Assembly: GCA_040752415.1 (NCBI GenBank)
Contig: JBFMGU010000143.1
Location: 1 to 27,398, forward strand
Direction: 5' to 3'
Length of the DNA stretch: 27,398 bases
DNA from: Myxococcota bacterium
GTDB lineage: Bacteria; Myxococcota; JACRCW01
Part shown: positions 1-10,124 of the stretch, one piece after another
Layout: every line of letters begins with the position of its first letter
How positions within the stretch are numbered: the first letter of the stretch is position 1
Program-made: the position numbers and the translations under genes
Notes under the pieces: model-generated
The model's input: only the letters and a program-made list of their open reading frames with translations
Told to the model about the DNA's origin: nothing
The model's database searches: none

Positions 1-174
1 GCGCTCCTCCGCCAGCCGACGCAGGGATTCCTTCTGCGCCTGCCGCGCGCCCGGCGGATTGTTCCCGCTGAGGATCTCCGTCAGGAGCGCCTTGCGCGGG
101 TTGTCGTCCGCCATCGCGGCGACGTGCGCACGAAGCCGGCTCATGGCCTGCTCTTGGTTGGTCGACGGCACCAT
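1..174 (-). CDS. Hypothetical protein, N-terminal part, runs off the left edge (MVPSTNQEQAMSRLRAHVAAMADDNPRKALLTEILSG...)
   Basis: Translated by hand, not in the ORF track. ATG at 174, GAGGTG RBS overlapping the stop of the upstream gene (183), frame open to the window edge. Confidence 0.7.
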   Translation of the reverse strand, partial: MVPSTNQEQAMSRLRAHVAAMADDNPRKALLTEILSGNNPPGARQAQKESLRRLAEER

Positions 175-182
175 GGCTCACC

Positions 183-761
183 TCACAGCTTCCCGAGGGC
201 CAAGAGCAGCGTGAGCATGTCCATGCGGCCTCCGCCGCCAGACAGCCCGCCCTCGCTCATCAGGAGCAGGAGCAGCGTGGTGGTATCCAGGCCGTCACCG
301 GTCGGCGCGCCGCTGCCGTCGCGGTCCTTCAGGAGCAGGATGAGCATCAGCGGGTCAATGCCCGTGCGCTCGTTGTCCTCCGTCGGCTGGTAGAACCCGC
401 CGCCCTGGGCAGCGACCGAGGCCGTCACGCTCTTGAGGCGCATCACGTCCTGTCGCACGGCCTGGAAGGCCTGACCCACGGCGCGCGCGAACTCGCGGAA
501 CTGCTCCGTGGTGATCACGCCTTCGGGGAACATGACGCGACCACCGCGCCCGTCGGGAAGCTGGATCATGAGGTCCCGCTTGCCTTCCGGGGTTTGGCCG
601 GTGACCGCTCCAATGACGCCGCCAATGGCGTCACCCACGGCGTGCTCAATGGCCTGCATGGCGTTCCCTGCGCCGGTCATGACCTGCCCCGGCGACGGAA
701 GGCCCGGAAGGGGCAGCGGCACCGGCACAGGCAGCGGGAGGGGAATTGGGGGGGCAAACAT
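183..761 (-). CDS. Hypothetical protein (192 aa): Pro-rich N-terminus and three Gly-flanked Leu-rich motifs at the C-terminus; possible virion/membrane protein
   Basis: AAGGTG RBS before ATG 761; tightly packed in an operon; motifs GIDPLMLILLLKD, GLDTTTLLLLLMSE, GRMDMLTLLLALGKL. Confidence 0.75.
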   Translation of the reverse strand: MFAPPIPLPLPVPVPLPLPGLPSPGQVMTGAGNAMQAIEHAVGDAIGGVIGAVTGQTPEGKRDLMIQLPDGRGGRVMFPEGVITTEQFREFARAVGQAFQAVRQDVMRLKSVTASVAAQGGGFYQPTEDNERTGIDPLMLILLLKDRDGSGAPTGDGLDTTTLLLLLMSEGGLSGGGGRMDMLTLLLALGKL

Positions 762-798
762 GTTTCACCTTCTTCTCTCTGGACCACGTGGGGTCCGG

Positions 799-2469
799 TT
801 ACGCCGGCCTCATGGCCGGCGGGTTCAGGCCGAGGGCACTCGCCAACTCGGCTGAAGACGCTTCACGTTGATTTCCGACGACGTTGCCGGCAGTGCTGGC
901 CATGCCGCCCACGGCGCCGACAATGGGGCCAGCCACCGTGGCAACGGGACCGACGATCTCCGCGGCGGCCGTCAGGAACGGTCCGACGTAGGGCACGGCG
1001 GAGAGGGCAGGTCCGACGGCGCTGGCCACCGGCCCAGCGATTCCGAGCGCGGCGGCCAAGCCGCCCGACGCGGCGCCAACGAGCTTGGACAGGCCGACGA
1101 TACCTTCCTTGCTGGTGACCACTTCAAAGGCGTGACCAGCAAGATCCCCGACGCCGGCGACGACCCGACGGCCAACCTTGTTGAGGTCGGACGCGGCCTC
1201 CCTGACGTCGGGGGGAAGCAACTGCGCCGGGAAGGCAAGGTCACCGCCAGCACCAAAGCTGCCCAGGTGCACGACAGGCTTGAGGTTCACGGGCACCGCA
1301 GTGCCGTTGACGACGAGCGTGCCGTCACCATTGAACACCACTTGGCCGATCTGGCCGTCCTTGACCCCCAGGGCCTTCGCAGCGTCGGCAGTGCGGGGCT
1401 GGATGATGGCCGAGGCGGCAGTGTTGGGTTGGACCGGCCGCGGACCGTTGGCGCCCTCAATGACCGGCCGCGGGATGAGCGCTTCCGGGTTCACGAAGAT
1501 GCGCATGTCACTGAAGGGGAAGGTGCGATCAATGACGTACTCGACGGCAAAGTGCAGATGTGGCCCGTTCTGCGCGGTCCCGCTGTGCCCGCTCTCCGCA
1601 AACTGCTGACCCTGCTCCACGACGGTGCCGGGCTGCACGAGCACGCGTTGCAAGTGCGCGAACGTGAGAATGAAGCCCGTGTCGTCTTGGGAGTTGTAGT
1701 CAATGTCCGGGAAGATCCCGTCGGGGCGCACCGCGGTGGCCTTCACCACCGTGCCGCCCTCGCGCTCCTCAAAGACCTTGCGCACCATCATGCGCACCGG
1801 CGCCACCACGGGTGTGCCATCACCAGCGCGAAGATCAATCCCTCGGTGGGTCTCGTCGCCGCGGATGCTCTCGCGTGCGTCGAAGGCGCTGGTCACCGCC
1901 GAGGGGATGGCGAGAGGGGATGCCCACGCTCCTTGAGGGGCGGGCACGCTGGCGGGCAGCGGCGCGCGGGTGGCGTTGGCGTTCACGGGCTGCGCGCTGA
2001 CAGGCATGGCGCCACGCGTCTTGAATTCGTAGGCGCGCGCCAATTCGTCAGCCGTGACCTTGAAGAACAGCAGCGCCTTGCCAAAGAGGCGCCACATCTC
2101 GCGGCCCACCTCCCGCTCCTGGGCACCGGCCCGCCACGCTGCGTCCTCGACGCCGTCACGTGCCCCCACCTCGAACGTGGAAAGATCCGGTTGGCCTGAC
2201 AGCTCCTCCCGCATCGCTTCAAAGAAGCCGCGCCACATCCACGCCGTCTGGCTCTCGTCGTATTTCACGACTTGGTGCGCGGCGATGAAAGCACGGAGCC
2301 CCCCGTGGGATCCTGATGTCACGTCGGAGCCATCGCGTGTGGGCACCACCGTTTCCCGTGGCGCGCGGGGCTTGCGCGGCGGCTTCCCCGCCGCTGCCTT
2401 CTGGAGCTTCCAAGCGAGTTTGAAGTCACCACCCGCCTGGTCAATGAACTTCTTCTCAAGACCGGCCAT
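799..2469 (-). CDS. M23 (LytM-type) metallopeptidase-domain protein with unknown N-terminus and long Gly/Ala/Val-rich C-terminal tail (556 aa)
   Basis: HRGIDLRAGDGTPVVAP (HxxxD), FAHLQRVLVQPGTVVEQGQ and SGTAQNGPHLHFAV (HxH). Start moved from 2505 to ATG 2469 because of an AAAGGAGG RBS. Confidence 0.85.
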   Translation of the reverse strand: MAGLEKKFIDQAGGDFKLAWKLQKAAAGKPPRKPRAPRETVVPTRDGSDVTSGSHGGLRAFIAAHQVVKYDESQTAWMWRGFFEAMREELSGQPDLSTFEVGARDGVEDAAWRAGAQEREVGREMWRLFGKALLFFKVTADELARAYEFKTRGAMPVSAQPVNANATRAPLPASVPAPQGAWASPLAIPSAVTSAFDARESIRGDETHRGIDLRAGDGTPVVAPVRMMVRKVFEEREGGTVVKATAVRPDGIFPDIDYNSQDDTGFILTFAHLQRVLVQPGTVVEQGQQFAESGHSGTAQNGPHLHFAVEYVIDRTFPFSDMRIFVNPEALIPRPVIEGANGPRPVQPNTAASAIIQPRTADAAKALGVKDGQIGQVVFNGDGTLVVNGTAVPVNLKPVVHLGSFGAGGDLAFPAQLLPPDVREAASDLNKVGRRVVAGVGDLAGHAFEVVTSKEGIVGLSKLVGAASGGLAAALGIAGPVASAVGPALSAVPYVGPFLTAAAEIVGPVATVAGPIVGAVGGMASTAGNVVGNQREASSAELASALGLNPPAMRPA

Positions 2470-2529
2470 GACCGAGTCCTCCTTTCGGCGTTTTGATACG
2501 GACACGATAAGCAGCGCGCAGGAGTGACG

Positions 2530-2601
2530 ACGTACTACGAGCCTACGCGTAGTACGTGACCCCCGTTTCTCGTCGAGTGCCGCTGCGTAATACGCGCAGC
2601 G
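2530..2601. promoter_or_regulatory. Putative operator cluster: CGTAnTACG palindromes at 2531-2539, 2548-2556 and 2586-2594
   Basis: Read directly. The first two form a 10-bp inverted repeat (ACGTACTACG-N8-CGTAGTACGT). They lie between the divergent M23 and RHH genes. Confidence 0.55.
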
Positions 2602-2801
2602 ATCGCAGAAAACGGATCACGGAATCGCCGGTGCGCGCCATGCAAACCCGGCCGTTGTGGTGGGATATCGGATCACGTTTCTCCGCGTCCGGACGCGAAC
2701 TTTTGGCCTTCCAGGGTGTCCACCGCTATGGCCCGCGTGGCGGGCTTATTGCACGCTGGAACGAGGCGCCCGGAGTGGCCGGCGCTGGAGGAAGTACCGG
2801 G

Positions 2802-3023
2802 ATGGTGTCGAAGAAGGTCAGCAGCATCCGATGGGACGAGGAGATGCGCCAGCAGCTTGAGGAACGCGCGTGGCGCGAGCGGACCAGCGTCTCGGAACTC
2901 ATCCGATCCCTGGTCCGGCGCGGCCTTGCCCAGGACAGGCTTGCAGAGCGCCAGCAACCCGCGCCCGACCCGGACGAGGGGGAGGTGCGTACTACGGGCC
3001 CTGCGAAGACGCGTGCGCAGTGA
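2802..3023 (+). CDS. Ribbon-helix-helix (CopG/Arc-like) DNA-binding protein (73 aa)
   Basis: MVSKKVSSIRWDEEMRQQLEERAWRERTSVSELIRSLVRRGL fits the beta-strand, helix A, SxSELIR helix B pattern; GGAGG upstream of ATG 2802. Confidence 0.8.
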   Translation: MVSKKVSSIRWDEEMRQQLEERAWRERTSVSELIRSLVRRGLAQDRLAERQQPAPDPDEGEVRTTGPAKTRAQ

Positions 3024-3052
3024 TCTTCCGCCGCGTATCAACACCCCAGCAA

Positions 3053-3369
3053 TCAGCATCGTTCCCCACACAAGCAACAGGAGGTGGCCCTATGAACCCC
3101 AGTGACACCCGTGGTCTCCGCGGACGGCGACGGGGCCGGCGCGCCGTCCTCTGGCGGTGCTTGGCTGAACAGCTCGGCGAGCGCGACACCGTAGGCGGTC
3201 GACAGCGCCACGAGGCTCAACAGCGTCACGTTGGTGCGGCCTGTCTCAAGGCGGCTGAGTTGCTTGGGGTTGCGCGCTCCGCCGCCGCCTCCTGGGAAAG
3301 GCCGCGCTCGATTCGCAGCCCCCTGAGCCGCGCTCCCAGGGCGCGCCGCTCCCGCGCGAAGCTCGCCAT
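3053..3369 (-). pseudogene. XRE-family HTH regulator, frameshifted
   Basis: MASFARERRALGARLRGLRIERGLSQEAAAERA in one frame continues as PKQLSRLETGRTNVTLLSLVALSTAYGVALAELF in another. Break near 3270, where the usual G-L/I-H turn residues are missing. Confidence 0.8.
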
Positions 3370-3546
3370 GATGATGGGCTGCCGCTTGGCTTCCGGCCGT
3401 CCATGCGCATGTTGTGACCGTGGGGCAGGCACGCGGGCGCCCGGTTACGCGCCACGCCCTTGCGGGTCCAACAACTCAATTGTTACCATTGGCACCCTGT
3501 TGACGGAGCGCCGTTGCCCATTGCAGCCGCGGGAGACCCTCCCCCA

Positions 3547-3942
3547 ATGACAACTCCCAGATTGCGCATCCTCATCGTGGACGATGACGCGTTGGTGCGG
3601 GGCGCGCTCGTGCGACAGCTCCGCGCTGCTGGGTTTGACGTCGTGGGCTGTGCGGCGGATGCCGGCACGGCGGTTGAGCAGGCAGAGAAGTTGCGGCCCG
3701 ACGTTGTCACCATGGACGTGGATCTGGGCCGTGGTGCGTCCGGCTTGGAGGCAACCCGCGTGATCGCGGCCCGGCTTCGGACTTGTGTCGTCGTCGTCAC
3801 CAGTCAGGACGTTAGGGAAGCAGCATTGGAGGCGGGTGCCTGTGGGTTTGTCTCCAAGTTCGACGCACTGGAGCGCCTCGTCCCTGGGATCGTGACAGCG
3901 CACCGCGGCTGCCAAGACGCGCACGGGCACCGTGTGCCTTGA
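3547..3942 (+). CDS. Stand-alone response-regulator receiver domain protein
   Basis: RILIVDDD, RPDVVTMD (phospho-Asp), SGLEATR, VVVVTS and GACGFVSK motifs; no output domain. Confidence 0.85.
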   Translation: MTTPRLRILIVDDDALVRGALVRQLRAAGFDVVGCAADAGTAVEQAEKLRPDVVTMDVDLGRGASGLEATRVIAARLRTCVVVVTSQDVREAALEAGACGFVSKFDALERLVPGIVTAHRGCQDAHGHRVP

Positions 3943-4497
3943 GGAGTCCGCTGAAAATGAACCGCGCCATCTTGCAAAGAGCATGGACCGGCTTGGTCAG
4001 CGGCTTGATGCTCAACGCGGCCCGCGCCGTCCTGGCAAACTGAGCCGAACCGGCTCCCCCGTCACCCGCAGAGATGACCCTGTGGCAGGGAACGCCCAGG
4101 TGACTGACGTAGTGGACGCGCTTCTGACATTGCCCGCTTTGGACGTCGTCGCTCATGGTTCTTGGCGTGGACATCCACCGTGGCTTGGCGATGCTCAATT
4201 CGCTCGCGCTGCGGTTCCGCGAAGGGCTTCCAGCCCTTGAGCGCACCCTCGGGCACGGGTGGCTGCATGAACCCCGGGCTTGGCCTCCCTTCATCGTCGT
4301 GGCCCGCATCCTTCATGGCCCGCAGCGCCAAGATCAGAGCGCAAATCTGTGGCTTGACCAGGATGACAACCGGGCGTACCGTTTGAGCGCTTGACACCAA
4401 AGGGCGACCTTGCCGGCGACGGCTTGGGAGCAAATCCGCGGGCACTCTTGAAGGCTTCGCGGTGCCAAGCTGGCGTCGACGCCAGCGAGGGGGTCAG

Positions 4498-7046
4498 ATG
4501 CGAACTAGCGCTGTCGTCTTCGTGGCCGTTGTTATTGCCGTGCTTCCGTCGTGCCGGTCGAGGCAGGACGACCGAATCAGGTGTGCCTGCTTCAAGAGCA
4601 TCCAGGGCGGAACCGGAGTCGACACCATCAAGCCAACCGTTTGCTCAGATGCAGACCGCTCGGCGATGTGCCCAAAGAAGACTGCGAGCTCGCATGTGAC
4701 CGGAAAGAAGGCGGCCCGTACGAATTGGCGGATCCGCCAAGTCGGTTCAGTTGCGAGACGGACGCGGATTGCGCTGCGCCTGGGCGAGGACCGAAGTGTG
4801 CAACGCACCCGAGGACAGGACGACGAGAATGCTTCGAATCTTGTGCCGCACCGTTGACGGTCCAAGACTGCCCTGAGGTCGCCACCGGATTGATCGTCGA
4901 GTGCATCGACGATGCTTGCATAGATTTCCAGTGGGAGCGCGTGTCGGCGTGCAATCCGTTCGAGGCGGCGTTTGCCAACATTCAGGGAGATCCGGGCCGG
5001 GCGACGTCCGAATCCGTCGCCCCGTCCAGCGTCGTCGCGCATGATCTTGTCTTCGGCACTATTCGTGTTCCCGAGGATGGCACCGCGTTCCCATCACTCA
5101 GCGCCAGCACAACGCTGGCCGGCGCTCAACTGACCATCAACGCGCTCGACGGGACGGTGCCACCACAAACGATTCCGATCGCCGGCACGCCGGGATCGTG
5201 CGGTCCGGTCACGTCCACCTGTGCCCCTCCCGCATTGCCTGGTTCGTGTTCCTCAGACAGCGACTGCGTCGCTGCCGGGTCCTGCACGTCGGGTGCAATT
5301 GGGTCCGCGTGCAGTTCTGACGGCCAATGCAATGTCGTCGGAGAGTGCGACGACACGGGCTTCTGCAAGAGCGGCTCAGCAGGGTTGCCGTGCTCGAACG
5401 ATGTCAATTGCGACATCAGTGGCCAGTGCGTCTTCCTGTCGTCGTGCGTTCCACCGGCTGCGCCCGGAGCCTGCTCCAGCGACAACGACTGCGTGGTTGA
5501 AGCGTCATGCATTAGCGCCCGCGCTTGCACAAGTGCCCCCTTCCAGCCCTGCAACGAAGACGATCAGTGCGCCCCCTCGCTCGACTTGGATGGCACCACG
5601 ACGATGTCCGAGCCCTATTTCGTGCTCCTTTCGCCTGTGACGGTGCCGATAGCGGCGGACGGTTCGTTCGAGGTGCCGGCACAGGCCGCTGTGTTCGCAG
5701 CGGCGGGCTCGCTCAACTCGGCGCTCGGCGGCGCCGTGGAAGTCTCCTTCCTCGCGACCAACAGCAGTCCAATCGCTGGTGTGTACGACGAGGTCGGCGA
5801 CAACTTCACGCTGGCCGGCACACTTCAGCATCTGCCGGAGTCGCCCCTCTTGCCGGCAGCCGCTGGCGCGGACTTCAATGTGCGAATGCGGTTCGTCGGC
5901 AGGCCGCCTGTCGCGGAGGCAGGGGCTGATCGCAACGCGGTGTGCGGTGAACAGATCCAACTTCATGGAACGGCGACTGACCCCGACAACGACATAGTTT
6001 TTCAACAGTGGCTTATTGACCCGAACACTCCGACGACACAGACGCTGCCGGGTGCCGACGTCACGGTTTCGCTCGGTGTCGGCGCGCATGCCGCGACCTT
6101 CCAGGTGAGGGACTCGCGCGCCGTCTTCTCCGAGGACAGCATGGTCATTACGGTGACCAATGCTCCCCCGACGGCGGCGATCTCTGCCAATCCGACTCAG
6201 GAATGCACAAGCTCGGCCGGTGCCGACGTCAGTGTGTCGGCGGCTGGATCAAGTGATCCAGATGGATTGCCGCTGCATGCGTTCTACTGGCGGCTCGGCG
6301 CGCCGACCTCCCCCATCGTCGCCGAGGGCGCGCAGGCAACGCTTCCCCTTCCGATGGGGAGGACCACAGTCGTCTTGGAGGTCGTCGACGCTTGTGGCTC
6401 AACCGCGTTCACTACAACGGCGATCGACGTCGTCGACACCACACCGCCTGAACTGACGGAGTTCGCCTATCTTGGTCCAGCGTGCCTTTGGCCGCCAAAT
6501 CATCACTACTTCGTCGTCGACGTCAACGCTCACTTCTCTGCTCTGATTTCGGATCGCTGCTCAAACGCGACACTCACAGTGCTGTCGGCGAGCAGCAATC
6601 AGCCGGACGACGCGACCGGAGATGGAGACACCACCAACGATGTGGTCGTTCACCCGGATCACGTCTGCGTCCGGTCCGAGCGGCGCGGCAACTCCGCTGA
6701 TGCCCGGATCTACACGATCCACGTCGCAGCAATCGACGCGTCCGGCAACACATCCGACCCCTCAGTGCAGCTTCGCGTCGGTCATGACCAAGCGGGCCTG
6801 GATCGGTGTCTCGAAAATGTGCAGACCGTGGACGAGGGCGCGAGCGTTTGCCAGCCTGCTCCGCCGCCGAACGCTAGCACTCCGCCAGCGGGTTCTTCTG
6901 GCGAAGACGCGGACGACGGTAGCTCCCGCAGCATTGGGTCTGACGACGACGCCGGAGTGAATTGCTCGCACGCCGGCCACCCGTCGTTCTTCCTGGTCTG
7001 GTTGGGATTCGTCCAAGCATGGGCGCGGCGTCGGCGACGGGCGTAA
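4498..7046 (+). pseudogene. Large Cys-rich surface protein (lipoprotein signal, Cys repeats, PKD/Ig-like domains, WPPNH-motif domain, MYXO-CTERM-like tail), frameshifted near 4656
   Basis: Signal MRTSAVVFVAVVIAVLPSC starts at ATG 4498 after a GAGGGGG RBS, in a different frame from ORF 4551..7046. Adding one C at 4656-4657 joins them (CSDADPLGDVPKEDC). Also PPVAEAGADR, NAPPTAAI, LWPPNHHY and C-terminal GVNCSHAGHPSFFLVWLGFVQAWARRRRRA. Confidence 0.7.
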
Positions 7047-7064
7047 ATGGGAGGTCTTGTGCAA

Positions 7065-7923
7065 ATGCGTTCCGCCCTCGTTTTGTGCGCCGGGTTATTG
7101 GCCTGCGGCGCTGACAGCCGTTTCAAGCAACTCGCGGCCGGCAACAACTTGACCTGCGGCATTCTCGACGACGACTCGCTCGTCTGTTGGGGCGTCAACA
7201 ACGTCGGACAATCTGAACCGCCGACCGGCTCCTTCAAACGTGTCAGCGTGGGGTTGGCTCACGCTTGCGCGATCCGACAGGACGACTCACTTGCCTGCTG
7301 GGGTGACAACGGATCGGGTCGGGCGAGCCCACCCTCTGGCACATTCAAGGACGTGTCCGCGTCGCAGGCCTTCACCTGCGCTGTGTCGTTGACGGGGGAG
7401 ATTTCGTGCTTCGGTTCCGACGCGCCCCGCGCCCATTCCACAGGGCACCTTTGAGCGCGTCGCGGCCGGAGACATTCATGCTTGCGCACTGCGAAGCGAC
7501 ATGACTGTGGCCTGTTGGGGAGAGAATACGGACCGCATCGAGGCGCCAACAGGCGCGTTTTCCGAGGTAGCGGCTGGTTCTTCGCAGATTTGCGCGATTG
7601 CGCAAGATGGGGGGGTGTCGTGTTGGGGCCGCAATACCCAGGCTCCCAGTGGTGGTTTCCGAGCGATCAGCACCGTCATGGAGCACGCCTGCGGTGTCCG
7701 TACCGATGGAAACTTGGTGTGCTGGGGGTTGAATGACTGGGGGCAGGCAAGCCCGCCGACGGGCCGTTTCAAAGACGTGGCGGCCGGTTGGAGACACACG
7801 TGTGCGATCCGTGACGACGACACCGTGGCGTGCTGGGGCTCTCCTTATGGGGGCGCTACGACTTCGCGCTACGTCAAGGAAACCATCCTTCCGATACCGA
7901 CGTGTATCGGTCCAGCGTGCTGA
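7065..7923 (+). pseudogene. RCC1/BLIP-II-like repeat lipoprotein, frameshifted at the C-run 7425-7428
   Basis: Lipobox GLLAC after a GGGAGG RBS. Repeats of type F..V.AG..H.CAI..D..V.CWG.N occur in both ORFs 7047..7454 and 7501..7923. Removing one C gives DAPAPIPQGTFERVAAGDIHACALRSDMTVACWG. Confidence 0.8.
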
Positions 7924-7928
7924 CCCCA

Positions 7929-9139
7929 ATGACGCCCATTCGTGCGGCGGCTGTGTCTGGGGTTCTCGTCGTGGGTTTGGCGAATTGCACCAGCACCCCT
8001 GCCGGCGGTCCGCCAGATTCCGGGTCTCCGACGAGCGGCACGGCAGATCGTGACCGGTTTGTGACCGCCTATGAAGCGTTTCTGATCTGCGAGCGGGCCA
8101 ATGAAGATCAGTCCTTCCTCGGTCGTGTAGAGCCCCAGGCGCGCTCGTCATCCGCCCACGACGACGCGGAGGCATTCGCCGACCTCGTCTTTAACGCCCC
8201 CTTCCGTGAGCGTGTCCGCGGACGCCTTGGCCCAGTGCCTCGCGGCGTTGGAGCACGCCTCCATTCCGTGCCAAGGCGACCCGGATGACTTCAGTGCTAT
8301 CTGCGGCGCCGCTTTCGTCGGTCAACTCTCACCTGGCTCGCCCTGCGCTGCTGCGCTCCAGTGTGCTGGGGGCTTTTGTGCGGCCCGGGACGGTGGCTGC
8401 GGAGTCTGCACGCGCTACGCCGCGACTGGCGAGGCCTGCCTGGAAGCTCAGTGTGACAAGGGCAGCGGGCTCTATTGCGACCGCACGACGTACACCTGTC
8501 GCCAGATAGCCGAGCAAGGACAGACGTGCGTCGACGGGGCGGTGACTCTTCGGTGCGATGATTCGAGCTGGTGCGACTCGGTTTCGGGTCTGTGCCAGCC
8601 ACGACGAGGAGAAAGCGAGGCCTGCGCGGCGGCGGCGGAATGCGCCGAAGGGCTGCGATGTGCCTCCGGTACGTGCGCACGGAGGAAAGCGGCGGGCGAC
8701 ACATGCAACGTCGCGGCGGTGGACGAGTGCTCCGTGACGGAGAGCGGCATGGTGTGCGAGTACAGTGCTGACGGTGGCCATTGTTCTCTTGCAGAGGTTG
8801 TCGACGAGGGCGAGCCGTGCAATGCGGTCGGATCATTCGACTACACCGCGACACTCTGGTGCGAACACGGATTGACCACGCACTACTGCCGCTTGGCTGA
8901 CGGCGGCGGTCGCGAGGGCGTGTGCTCGCGTCGCCCAGGTCCAGGAGAGGCATGCTCCCGGATCTCTGCGCCGTGCGACGGACTGCCGTGAGGGGGAGGC
9001 GGGGTTCGTTTGCAGCACGTGGCCCGGACGCGGTGAGCCGTGCCAGTCGCGTTGTGCCGACGGCCTCCGTTGCGCGGCAAGCCAGGATGGTGGCCGCACC
9101 TGTCGGCCTCAGGCACCGCCGATCATCTGCGAGATGTGA
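7929..9139 (+). pseudogene. Cys-rich repeat lipoprotein (GExC...C..GL.C repeats) with two frameshifts (about 8197-8201 and about 8980)
   Basis: Lipobox VGLANC. Removing one C of CCCCC joins it to ORF 8206..8991. The same repeat resumes in another frame at 8981 (DCREGEAGFVCSTWPGRGEPCQSRCADGLRC...ICEM, stop 9139). Confidence 0.7.
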
Positions 9140-9147
9140 CCCTGTGT

Positions 9148-9426
9148 TCAACCGGGCCGCGTAAGCAGAGCGGAGAGGGCCTGCCGCACGTCGTGCAGTA
9201 TCTTCAGCGCAGCGCCCGCGTCTCCGGAAACGAGCGCCAGCATGGCGCCCTGAACCATGTTGCTGACATTGCTGACACGCTGATCGCGAACATCCGCGTC
9301 CGTTTGTGAGGGTTCGCGGTCGGCGCCCACTTTCTCCGCGTCATTCTGCGGAGTTTTCGCTATCGGTGCTTGTGGTTCCATGAGCGTCCCGTCGCTTCCG
9401 GCGCCTTCGATTCCCGCTGGGATCAC
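9148..9426 (-). other. Putative detached C-terminal segment of an integrase gene split by integration
   Basis: Frame reads VIPAGIE across the att core and stays open for 85 more residues, ending in an amphipathic helix; its stop converges 8 bp from the cargo gene stop at 9139. No catalytic motif is present, so the integrase link is inference. Confidence 0.5.
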
Positions 9427-9428
9427 CA
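9406..9428 (+). other. Attachment-site core: 3' fragment of a tRNA (probably tRNA-Glu, Arg possible)
   Basis: TTCGATT (T-loop) CCCGC (T-stem 3' strand) TGGGATC (acceptor 3' strand) A CCA. Upstream bases do not supply the matching GCGGG T-stem strand or a 5' tRNA half. Confidence 0.85.
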
Positions 9429-9438
9429 AACGTTGTAC

Positions 9439-9475
9439 GCGGGCATCCGGGAAACCGGGTGCCCGCTTTTTTTTT
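9439..9475 (+). terminator. Rho-independent terminator, likely that of the target tRNA gene
   Basis: 12-bp stem GCGGGCATCCGG / CCGGGTGCCCGC (one G-U pair), GAAA loop, followed by 9 T; starts 10 bp after the CCA. Confidence 0.92.
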
Positions 9476-9611
9476 GCCCCGAGTTCCAGCGTCGTCGGGC
9501 ACCACGCAGATCCTGCGGTTGGACCGTGGACGCGTGGGTGCTTTGGCGCTAGCTCTGCCGCCCCAACCTTTCCGCCGGAGCACAACCGGCGACGTCACCA
9601 AGGAGCGGCAC

Positions 9612-10124
<513 letters not shown>

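Follow-up and report, generated by a model that had tools for sequence, protein, structure and literature searches.

An integrase gene that appears to contain its own attachment site: the attR end of a ~12.8-kb element in a tRNA-Glu(CUC) gene of a Myxococcota bacterium, and the recurrence of this layout across an integrase family

The DNA analyzed here, contig JBFMGU010000143.1 of GenBank assembly GCA_040752415.1, is a stretch of 27,398 nucleotides (nt) from a Myxococcota bacterium, referred to below as the window; it is the whole of contig C50 in an 11-Mb metagenome-type assembly of 520 contigs with 4.3% contamination. We consider it very likely that positions 9148-9428 of the window are the attR end of an element of about 12.8 kb that is inserted in tRNA-Glu(CUC) and carries its attachment site, attP, within the 3' part of its own integrase gene (int). 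The anatomy of this locus, its reading frames, the homologies and the recurrence of the arrangement across the integrase family are established. We also lean, by a small degree, towards a broader conclusion, namely, that in a Myxococcota integrase family the complete attP of about 230 bp is as a rule contained in the final third of int, and that the enzyme carries a helical-hairpin tail only when the element is free or in tandem. Such a module, which has been retargeted to at least 13 different tRNA species and whose core is read in all three phases, would be a general sensor of the integration state.

The attR end of the element and the host DNA next to it contain the following features.
9406-9428, plus strand: orphaned native 3' end of tRNA-Glu(CUC), encoded CCA included; the same T-arm and acceptor sequence occurs in the tRNA-Glu(CUC) of a same-family genome.
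9406-9425, plus strand: 20-bp attachment-site (att) core, attR copy, from the T-loop to the acceptor end of tRNA-Glu(CUC); identical to positions 3400-3419 of contig C33 on the opposite strand.
9439-9475, plus strand: intrinsic terminator of the original tRNA gene with a 12-bp stem and a T9 run (stem-loop 9439-9466 plus nine T).
9612-10124, plus strand: host flank gene, thiol peroxidase-like (Redoxin/AhpC-TSA), assigned by domain match.

The 23-mer TTCGATTCCCGCTGGGATCACCA at 9406-9428 on the plus strand is present as a single copy in the window, with 0 copies expected in shuffled sequences. It comprises the T-loop, the 3' strand of the T-stem, the 3' acceptor strand, the discriminator A and the CCA of tRNA-Glu(CUC). 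ARAGORN detected no whole tRNA gene in the 27.4-kb window, and 9406-9428 is therefore a fragment. Together with the terminator and the host gene, this fragment fits what would remain of the 3' end of the original tRNA gene after the insertion of an element. A search of Rfam with the region 9100-9700 gave only two matches, both below the gathering score. In the same-family relative, a tRNA-Gln/tRNA-Glu pair is present, the downstream gene is a different one, and the CCA is not encoded. An empty attB was not demonstrable, with one of the 30 sampled relatives in the same family and no near kin in the collection.

The original prediction called for a second copy of the core to the left. The full 23-mer TTCGATTCCCGCTGGGATCACCA has no second copy in the genome when up to two mismatches are allowed. 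A genome-wide ARAGORN search located an intact tRNA-Glu(CUC) at positions 3399-3472 of contig C33 (minus strand), adjoining a tRNA-Gln(CUG), and this tRNA gene terminates with ...TTCGATTCCCGCTGGGATCA. The second copy is thus present, on C33, and only its length had been misjudged: it spans 20 bp rather than 23 because the tRNA-Glu(CUC) of C33 does not encode the CCA. When attL and attR are set side by side, the identity comprises exactly these 20 bp (TTCGATTCCCGCTGGGATCA) and ends on both flanks. Just inside the element side of the core, window positions 9389-9405 (CCCGTCGC) retain a partial likeness to the anticodon-arm region of the tRNA, at C33 positions 3420-3437 (CACGTCGC). Possibly, the tRNA-like stretch of the ancestral attP was longer.

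The first 18 bases of C33, when reverse-complemented, are the first 18 bases of the window, and this 18-mer is otherwise absent from the 11-Mb genome. Because the end 18-mer is unique, we place C33 directly against the window, as its left neighbor beyond the first base; the presence of the word TGCTGACA on both contigs is a further link between them. The span between the two cores then consists of C33 positions 1-3399 and window positions 19-9405, that is, about 12.8 kb.

A tyrosine integrase had been predicted at the far end of the element, pointing into the intact tRNA gene, and it is found there. The open reading frame (ORF) at C33 1941..3437, of 498 amino acids (aa), abuts the core, points into tRNA-Glu(CUC) and is antisense to it. 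It crosses the core as ...GATQMIPAGIE-PAFAT*, with the stop 5 codons past the core; the first base of the core is the second base of the Met codon. The protein matches the integrase family phrog_1 (E 6e-38), and its matches to Pfam are weak: PF14659 at 23.1 bits (cut-off 22.6), PF22022 at 24 (27) and PF00589 at 22 (27.1). Residues R218, K258, R335, H357 and Y367 are invariant across an alignment of 34 family sequences. When 50,697 phage records were compared, 237 of which matched int, the top match was the Int protein of phage Mx8, with 41% identity over residues 8-384 (E 9e-70). All catalytic residues precede residue 368 and the catalytic domain extends to about residue 380, with the core at residues 487-493; the integrated gene is predicted to encode a 498-aa protein with a complete catalytic domain. 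An ORF immediately upstream overlaps the start of int and resembles excisionases (HTH_17, E 1e-9; phrog_66 excisionase, E 8e-7).

At the window end, the minus strand from 9585 to 9148 translates as ...RLVIPAGIEGAGSDGTLMEPQ...LLTRPG*, reading ...RLVIPAGIE in the core, whereas the other two minus-strand frames of this stretch contain stops. The following features lie in the part of this frame beyond the core.
9151-9405, minus strand: 85 codons, putative C-terminal tail of the integrase in the excised (attP) form, assigned by its phase with int and its relatives P0081, P0084 and the L126 tail.
9163-9306, minus strand: predicted helical hairpin, tail residues 34-60 and 63-81 (AlphaFold2, four-sequence alignment).
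9260-9277, plus strand: perfect tandem TTGCTGACA TTGCTGACA, found by pattern match, inverted relative to int and encoding VSNVSN of the tail.

The description of VIPAGIE followed by 85 element-derived codons on the minus strand, from 9405 to 9151 with the stop codon at 9148-9150, proved correct in every coordinate. The tail nearly fills the gap to the convergent gene, though not exactly as had been stated, given that the plus-strand frame ends at 9139, 8 nt from the stop. Likewise in agreement with the original prediction, the recombinase frame reads through the core into the frame of the tail: both copies of the core are in phase 1, as determined by reading the two ends separately. Each of the outcomes named beforehand as speaking against this layout, namely, no integrase at the other core, an early stop, or another frame or orientation, was checked, and none occurred. 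Counted from the start of the window core, the in-phase frame has 92 codons and the other phases have 0 and 28. The GC fractions at codon positions 1/2/3 are 0.75/0.48/0.69 in the tail, which is coding-like, and 0.69/0.49/0.79 in the int body.

A search with the 92 residues from VIPAGIE to the end against 1.84 billion representatives returned five proteins, two of which are long, unrelated low-complexity matches. The other three are P0080, which is the window's own tail gene-called as a 77-aa ORF, P0081 (110 aa), which is 55% identical to the tail and has an in-frame core peptide of its own, IPSGFE, and P0084 (44 aa), which corresponds to the final part of the tail. These three tail relatives share the block MVQxAMxALVSGDAGxALKxLHDVRQAL almost without variation. 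AlphaFold2 assigned the tail a predicted local distance difference test score (pLDDT) of about 90 over residues 41-80 and left the first third disordered. Within a set of 24 sequences, the tail also matched that of L126, an element in tRNA-Asp with a different phase (E 3.5e-4). Phage genomes, Pfam and PHROGs contained no match to the tail.

The public gene calls that list the 77-aa product (P0080) and its 44-aa relative (P0084) as separate proteins would suit an independent small gene of 77 aa, starting from the ATG at 9380-9382 and unrelated to int. We regard this as highly improbable, given that the tail frame runs on from the core without a break and in the phase of int, that the relative P0081 runs through a core peptide of its own, and that sixteen related elements have the same in-phase layout. 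Moreover, no promoter-like site was found in 9000-9700, and the terminator of the tRNA gene lies directly upstream on the path of the tail strand.

A second terminator-like hairpin with a T-run is located at 9334-9353 on the plus strand, inside the tail-coding stretch; it could terminate transcription of the convergent cargo genes.

From this anatomy we infer, on the basis of sequence, that the element excises, that the integrase binds repeats flanking the core and that the tail affects its activity. In a free circle or at a tandem joint, int would read through the body, the core (MIPAGIE) and the 85-residue tail, yielding a protein of 578 aa (493 + 85), which we denote IntP. Recombination with the tRNA gene would shift the tail to the far end of the element, that is, into the window, and would at the same time join the int body to antisense tRNA sequence, yielding the 498-aa form, IntX, that ends with ...MIPAGIE-PAFAT*. 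Because the catalytic domain is untouched, integration would not destroy the integrase; what the protein would lose is a linker predicted to be disordered and a predicted helical hairpin. If the analogy with Mx8 holds, the prophage form without the tail should be the less active one in integration and should retain the capacity for excision in combination with the excisionase-like protein encoded upstream. The same DNA would double as the arms of attP.

The core is flanked on either side by repeats that lie within coding sequence. The locus contains three exact copies of TGCTGACA and one copy with 6 of 8 matches. On C33, CTGCTGACA is located at 3352-3360 in the opposite orientation, with the 6-of-8 copy 11 bp upstream, so that within int the core is preceded, at 46 and 57 bp, by an exact and a degenerate copy of the repeat. 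Beyond the core, at 129-146 bp, the tail ORF contains two perfect copies in inverted orientation; with up to one mismatch allowed, the window has only these two copies of TTGCTGACA, both exact and directly adjacent. A similar pattern was observed in other genomes, for 16 of which both cores were found as described below: in 11 of these 16 pairs, two copies of TTGCTAC (up to one mismatch) precede the core at a spacing of 11-12 bp, between -92 and -38, and one or two inverted copies follow it at a distance of about 86-147 bp. In three more of the 16 pairs, another word is repeated on both sides of the core; in one of these three, the Mx8-like pair, the copies are not inverted. In the encoded protein, the repeats appear as recurrent peptide boxes: LATxLATx ahead of the core, and TVANVAN, CSNVA or, in the window, VSNVSN beyond it. 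These repeats are probably arm-type sites for integrase binding, of the kind that heterobivalent, lambda-like integrases use, with 9260-9277 as candidate sites on the P' arm. In such an embedded attP, a tRNA-derived core would lie between two direct repeats on the P arm and two inverted repeats on the P' arm, with binding-site DNA and peptide dual-coded as 'LATxLATx' before the core and as boxes of the 'SNVAN' type after it.

To what extent the layout recurs was assessed in the family of this integrase. Its 77 homologues share about 35-55% identity with it and have highly variable C-termini. The end of the catalytic domain was recognizable in 71 of the 77, and in 35 of these 71 it is followed by a T-arm antisense peptide (counted as GFEP/GIEP/GLEP, D/E-S/L-N-P, or I/T-RT), compared with a mean of 4.5 and a maximum of 10 in shuffled tails; per residue, such peptides are nine times as frequent in the tails as in the protein bodies. 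When a single genome of each species was scanned, 80 loci were obtained, almost all of them with the label Myxococcota. In 33 of the 80, the int ORF ends within a tRNA gene or immediately beyond it, and this tRNA gene is in every case encoded on the opposite strand. The targets are Asp, Glu-UUC, Glu-CUC, four Leu species, Cys, Ser, Gly, Pro, Lys and Thr.

The distal copy of the core was sought for 23 of the 33 loci, once inside the fetched locus and 22 times by a genome pattern search; nine loci were left out, plus one whose core did not fit the search pattern. A distal core outside a whole tRNA gene was found in 16 of the 23 genomes. In these 16 relatives, the in-phase frame extends from the start of the core over 72, 102, 87, 90, 94, 121, 88, 100, 83, 87, 84, 97, 56, 90, 96 and 46 codons. 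Fourteen of them have at least 72 codons in phase, which makes 15 of 17 with the window locus (92), compared with only 3 of 34 off-phase frames, and the in-phase frame is the longest of the three in 13 of the 17 elements. Several of the split tails match the C-terminal ends of uninterrupted, full-length metagenomic integrases (L118-P0032 at E 2e-10 and L124-P0035 at E 5e-6), and the tail L122, from the prophage at locus L087, is nearly identical to that of Mx8 (E 2e-52); all of these E-values refer to a set of 24 sequences. In L120 (2139-2879, plus strand), the 3' part of an int gene runs unbroken through the core into an 83-residue tail. It is 96% identical at the DNA level over 481 nt to the split, tRNA-abutting int of the same genome, and a second copy of the core, with one mismatch, lies about 1.1 kb away. 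This looks like a re-created attP-type junction, of the kind expected from a tandem or nested insertion or from a free copy.

Some prophage-form integrases (L028 4589-4754; P0007, P0014) read antisense through a whole tRNA gene into a second one. In L028, these are tRNA-Asp and then tRNA-Val, giving ...GLEPAASGVTGRRYNQLNYHP...GFEPVTPGL*.

Several observations weigh against the interpretation of the window locus and its family set out above. The int body and the tail are located on two contigs that are joined only by the 18-bp overlap. Among longer proteins, no contiguous body-core-tail protein with the window's tail was found, and no locus with this tail emerged when the tail alignment was scanned against genome, viral and metagenome contigs. 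Compared with the other tails of the family among 78 proteins, the tail gave no significant match, either as a single sequence or as a 3-sequence profile; the links of the tail profiles, at E 5e-4 to 0.08 in the set of 24, are below the best of 56,199 background ORFs of the genome. In the family, the distal core was not found by the pattern search in 7 of the 23 genomes, the in-phase tail is short in 2 of the 17 elements (46 and 56 codons), and another phase is longer in 4 of the 17. The repeats are not significant for the window locus alone, since shuffled sequences attained three copies of an 8-mer in 23 of 100 cases and, in another set, in 51 of 200. Furthermore, 30% of the positions in the element are open for at least 85 codons in this GC-rich DNA, and 9.5% of mononucleotide shuffles of the 255 nt of the tail are free of stops; with long open frames this frequent, the openness of the tail alone is weak evidence. 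Finally, since the repeats encode the conserved peptide boxes, part of the conservation of the tail can be explained at the level of DNA and not of the peptide.

The last two points would also follow if the 255 nt past the core mattered only as DNA, namely, as the P' arm, with an open frame that is a by-product of GC-rich composition and a peptide without a role. The most conserved boxes (VSNVSN, TVANVAN, CSNVA) indeed coincide with the DNA repeats, and the similarity of the tails between subfamilies is weak. However, an arm needs no open frame, and the strong excess of long in-phase over off-phase frames in the 17 elements does not follow from such an arm. The conserved block of the tail, moreover, reaches about 80 nt past the repeats and is predicted with high confidence to form a hairpin, and the GC content by codon position is coding-like. 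Thus, a purely DNA-level role of this segment appears improbable to us.

The remaining points against the favored interpretation concern the state of the element itself, for which its gene content is relevant.
Window 1-9405, no strand: right-hand 9.4 kb of the element, delimited by ORF and domain content and by third-position GC.
C33 part of the element: a 327-aa ORF and two smaller ORFs of no recognized function.
Window part of the element: a 192-aa ORF.
Window 799-2505, minus strand: M23-peptidase-domain protein, 568 aa.
Window 2556-3023, plus strand: ORF of a ribbon-helix-helix (RHH) protein, with the RHH match in the last third of the ORF.
Window 3460-3942, plus strand: response-regulator receiver.
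Window 4551-7046, plus strand: Cys-rich protein, 831 aa, with a weak PKD match.
Window 7047-7454 and 7501-7923, plus strand: adjacent RCC1-repeat ORFs (PF13540, E 3e-19 and 4e-23), probably one interrupted gene.
Window 8206-8991, plus strand, continuing in another frame to 9139: Cys-rich ORF, convergent to the tail.

The GC content at third codon positions differs between the element (about 0.7) and the host flank (about 0.9). Among the genes of the element, none was recognized as encoding a capsid, portal or terminase; the element is an integrative island, satellite or remnant and not a whole Mx8-like phage. The Cys-rich ORF ends with a stop codon at 8989-8991 and changes frame near 8990, at or near a run of five G (8992-8996), and a Cys pattern of the same type resumes in the other frame up to 9139. 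A reading of this TGA as selenocysteine was considered and rejected: the same frame hits another TGA 15 codons on and the Cys pattern is lost, and the site is therefore a frame change and not a recoded stop, due either to a broken gene or to an assembly error.

The excised-form junction at the core was not detected in one public groundwater metagenome run (X1; word share 0.05). Contigs of X1 show 90-99% likeness to parts of 8401-8960, in the Cys-rich cargo gene, and nothing at 9003-9404; thus, relatives of the cargo gene occur elsewhere without the att junction of the window being seen.

Residue 332 of the integrase (C33 ~2934) is Tyr, in YDLRRT, where more than 90% of the 34 relatives have the second catalytic-site His (HDLRRT). 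Given this substitution and the two broken cargo genes, the element may be decaying. The architecture could then be real but fossil: the element would be immobile and the tail a stranded gene end that is never rejoined to int. The replacement of the second His in the integrase of the window element only, the frame change in the Cys-rich gene, the RCC1-repeat gene in two ORFs, the lack of phage structural genes, the lack of any other copy of the integrase family in the genome and the missing junction in the reads of that one run would all be expected of such a remnant. Yet both 20-bp cores are identical and the tandem 9-mers are perfect, and no interruption is present in int (498 aa), in the excisionase-like ORF or in the 85-codon tail. 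The breaks in the cargo genes could be assembly errors at G-runs, and Tyr at the position of the second His is also listed for the pNOB8 integrase in a table of a paper on archaeal integrases (PMC5861418). On balance, we consider a fossil element rather unlikely.

Elsewhere in the same genome, outside the window, a segment of about 2.3 kb (C471 45565-47816) contains a head-to-tail array of about 26 tRNA genes with diverse specificities, and further packed tRNA genes are present at C479 223-2509. Packed tRNA arrays are usually carried by large phages or mobile elements.

An attP located within an integrase gene that is altered by its own recombination has a clear precedent in Mx8. According to a review, attP of Mx8 lies within int, and integration creates a new 3' end that modifies the integrase and does not inactivate it (PMC6070905). 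As described there for Mx8 (PMC6070905), and as predicted here, a tail of about 100 residues is replaced by a few tRNA-antisense codons and the catalytic domain stays whole. The two systems further share a homologous tyrosine integrase (41% identity), an overlap with the start of int (by uoi in Mx8 and by the excisionase-like ORF here) and an antisense T-arm core peptide in the 3' part of int, which in Mx8 is STGLEPV, about 113 residues before the end of Int. They differ in the tail, which here has no sequence match to that of Mx8, in the carrier, a 12.8-kb element without capsid or terminase genes compared with a 49.5-kb phage, in the word that forms the arm repeats and in the Tyr at the second catalytic-site His. 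The target also differs, being tRNA-Glu(CUC) here and reportedly a tRNA-Asp locus for Mx8. Magrini et al. (1999) and Tojo et al. (1996) are said to have found the IntX form of Mx8 to be less active, with 112 residues replaced by 13.

For Mx9, attP is likewise said to lie in int, and the target is reportedly a tRNA-Gly gene. The same review describes a similar principle of integration for this phage, with a single int gene and two attB sites (PMC6070905); among the phage matches listed for int, the only myxophage records were those of Mx8. The 'suicidal' archaeal integrases of the SSV type (SSV1, pTN3, pT26-2) also have attP in the ORF, a translated att and tRNA targets, and form hybrid genes by the exchange of parts on either side of the core, according to a second paper (PMC7253208). 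That paper describes them as split into two inactive halves and as so far restricted to archaea (PMC7253208). Here, by contrast, the split falls after the whole catalytic domain and the prophage keeps a complete enzyme, which departs from a division into inactive halves. A further parallel is the integration-dependent immunity of mycobacteriophages, where integration also acts as a switch by editing the 3' end of a regulatory gene, which is a repressor gene and not int. There, attP reportedly lies inside the repressor gene (Broussard et al., 2013).

In the literature searched, no survey of intragenic attP across myxobacterial integrases turned up. Intragenic attP is already known from Mx8, and the additions made here are the family-wide recurrence and the repeats embedded in coding sequence. 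The mechanism of Mx8, an integrase changed by its own recombination, would thus not be limited to two laboratory phages but would be a recurring design of one integrase family across Myxococcota, present here on a 12.8-kb island. For annotation, it would explain 'orphan' small ORFs beside tRNA fragments as well as integrases with odd, variable C-termini made of antisense tRNA. Plasmids with the int-attP region of Mx8 are standard in myxobacterial genetics (PMC6070905), and the family would offer many natural int-attP cassettes for different tRNA genes, together with defined candidate arm repeats. If the broader conclusion holds, small non-phage islands as well as phages use this module, which would then be an evolvable sensor and not an oddity of Mx8 and Mx9.

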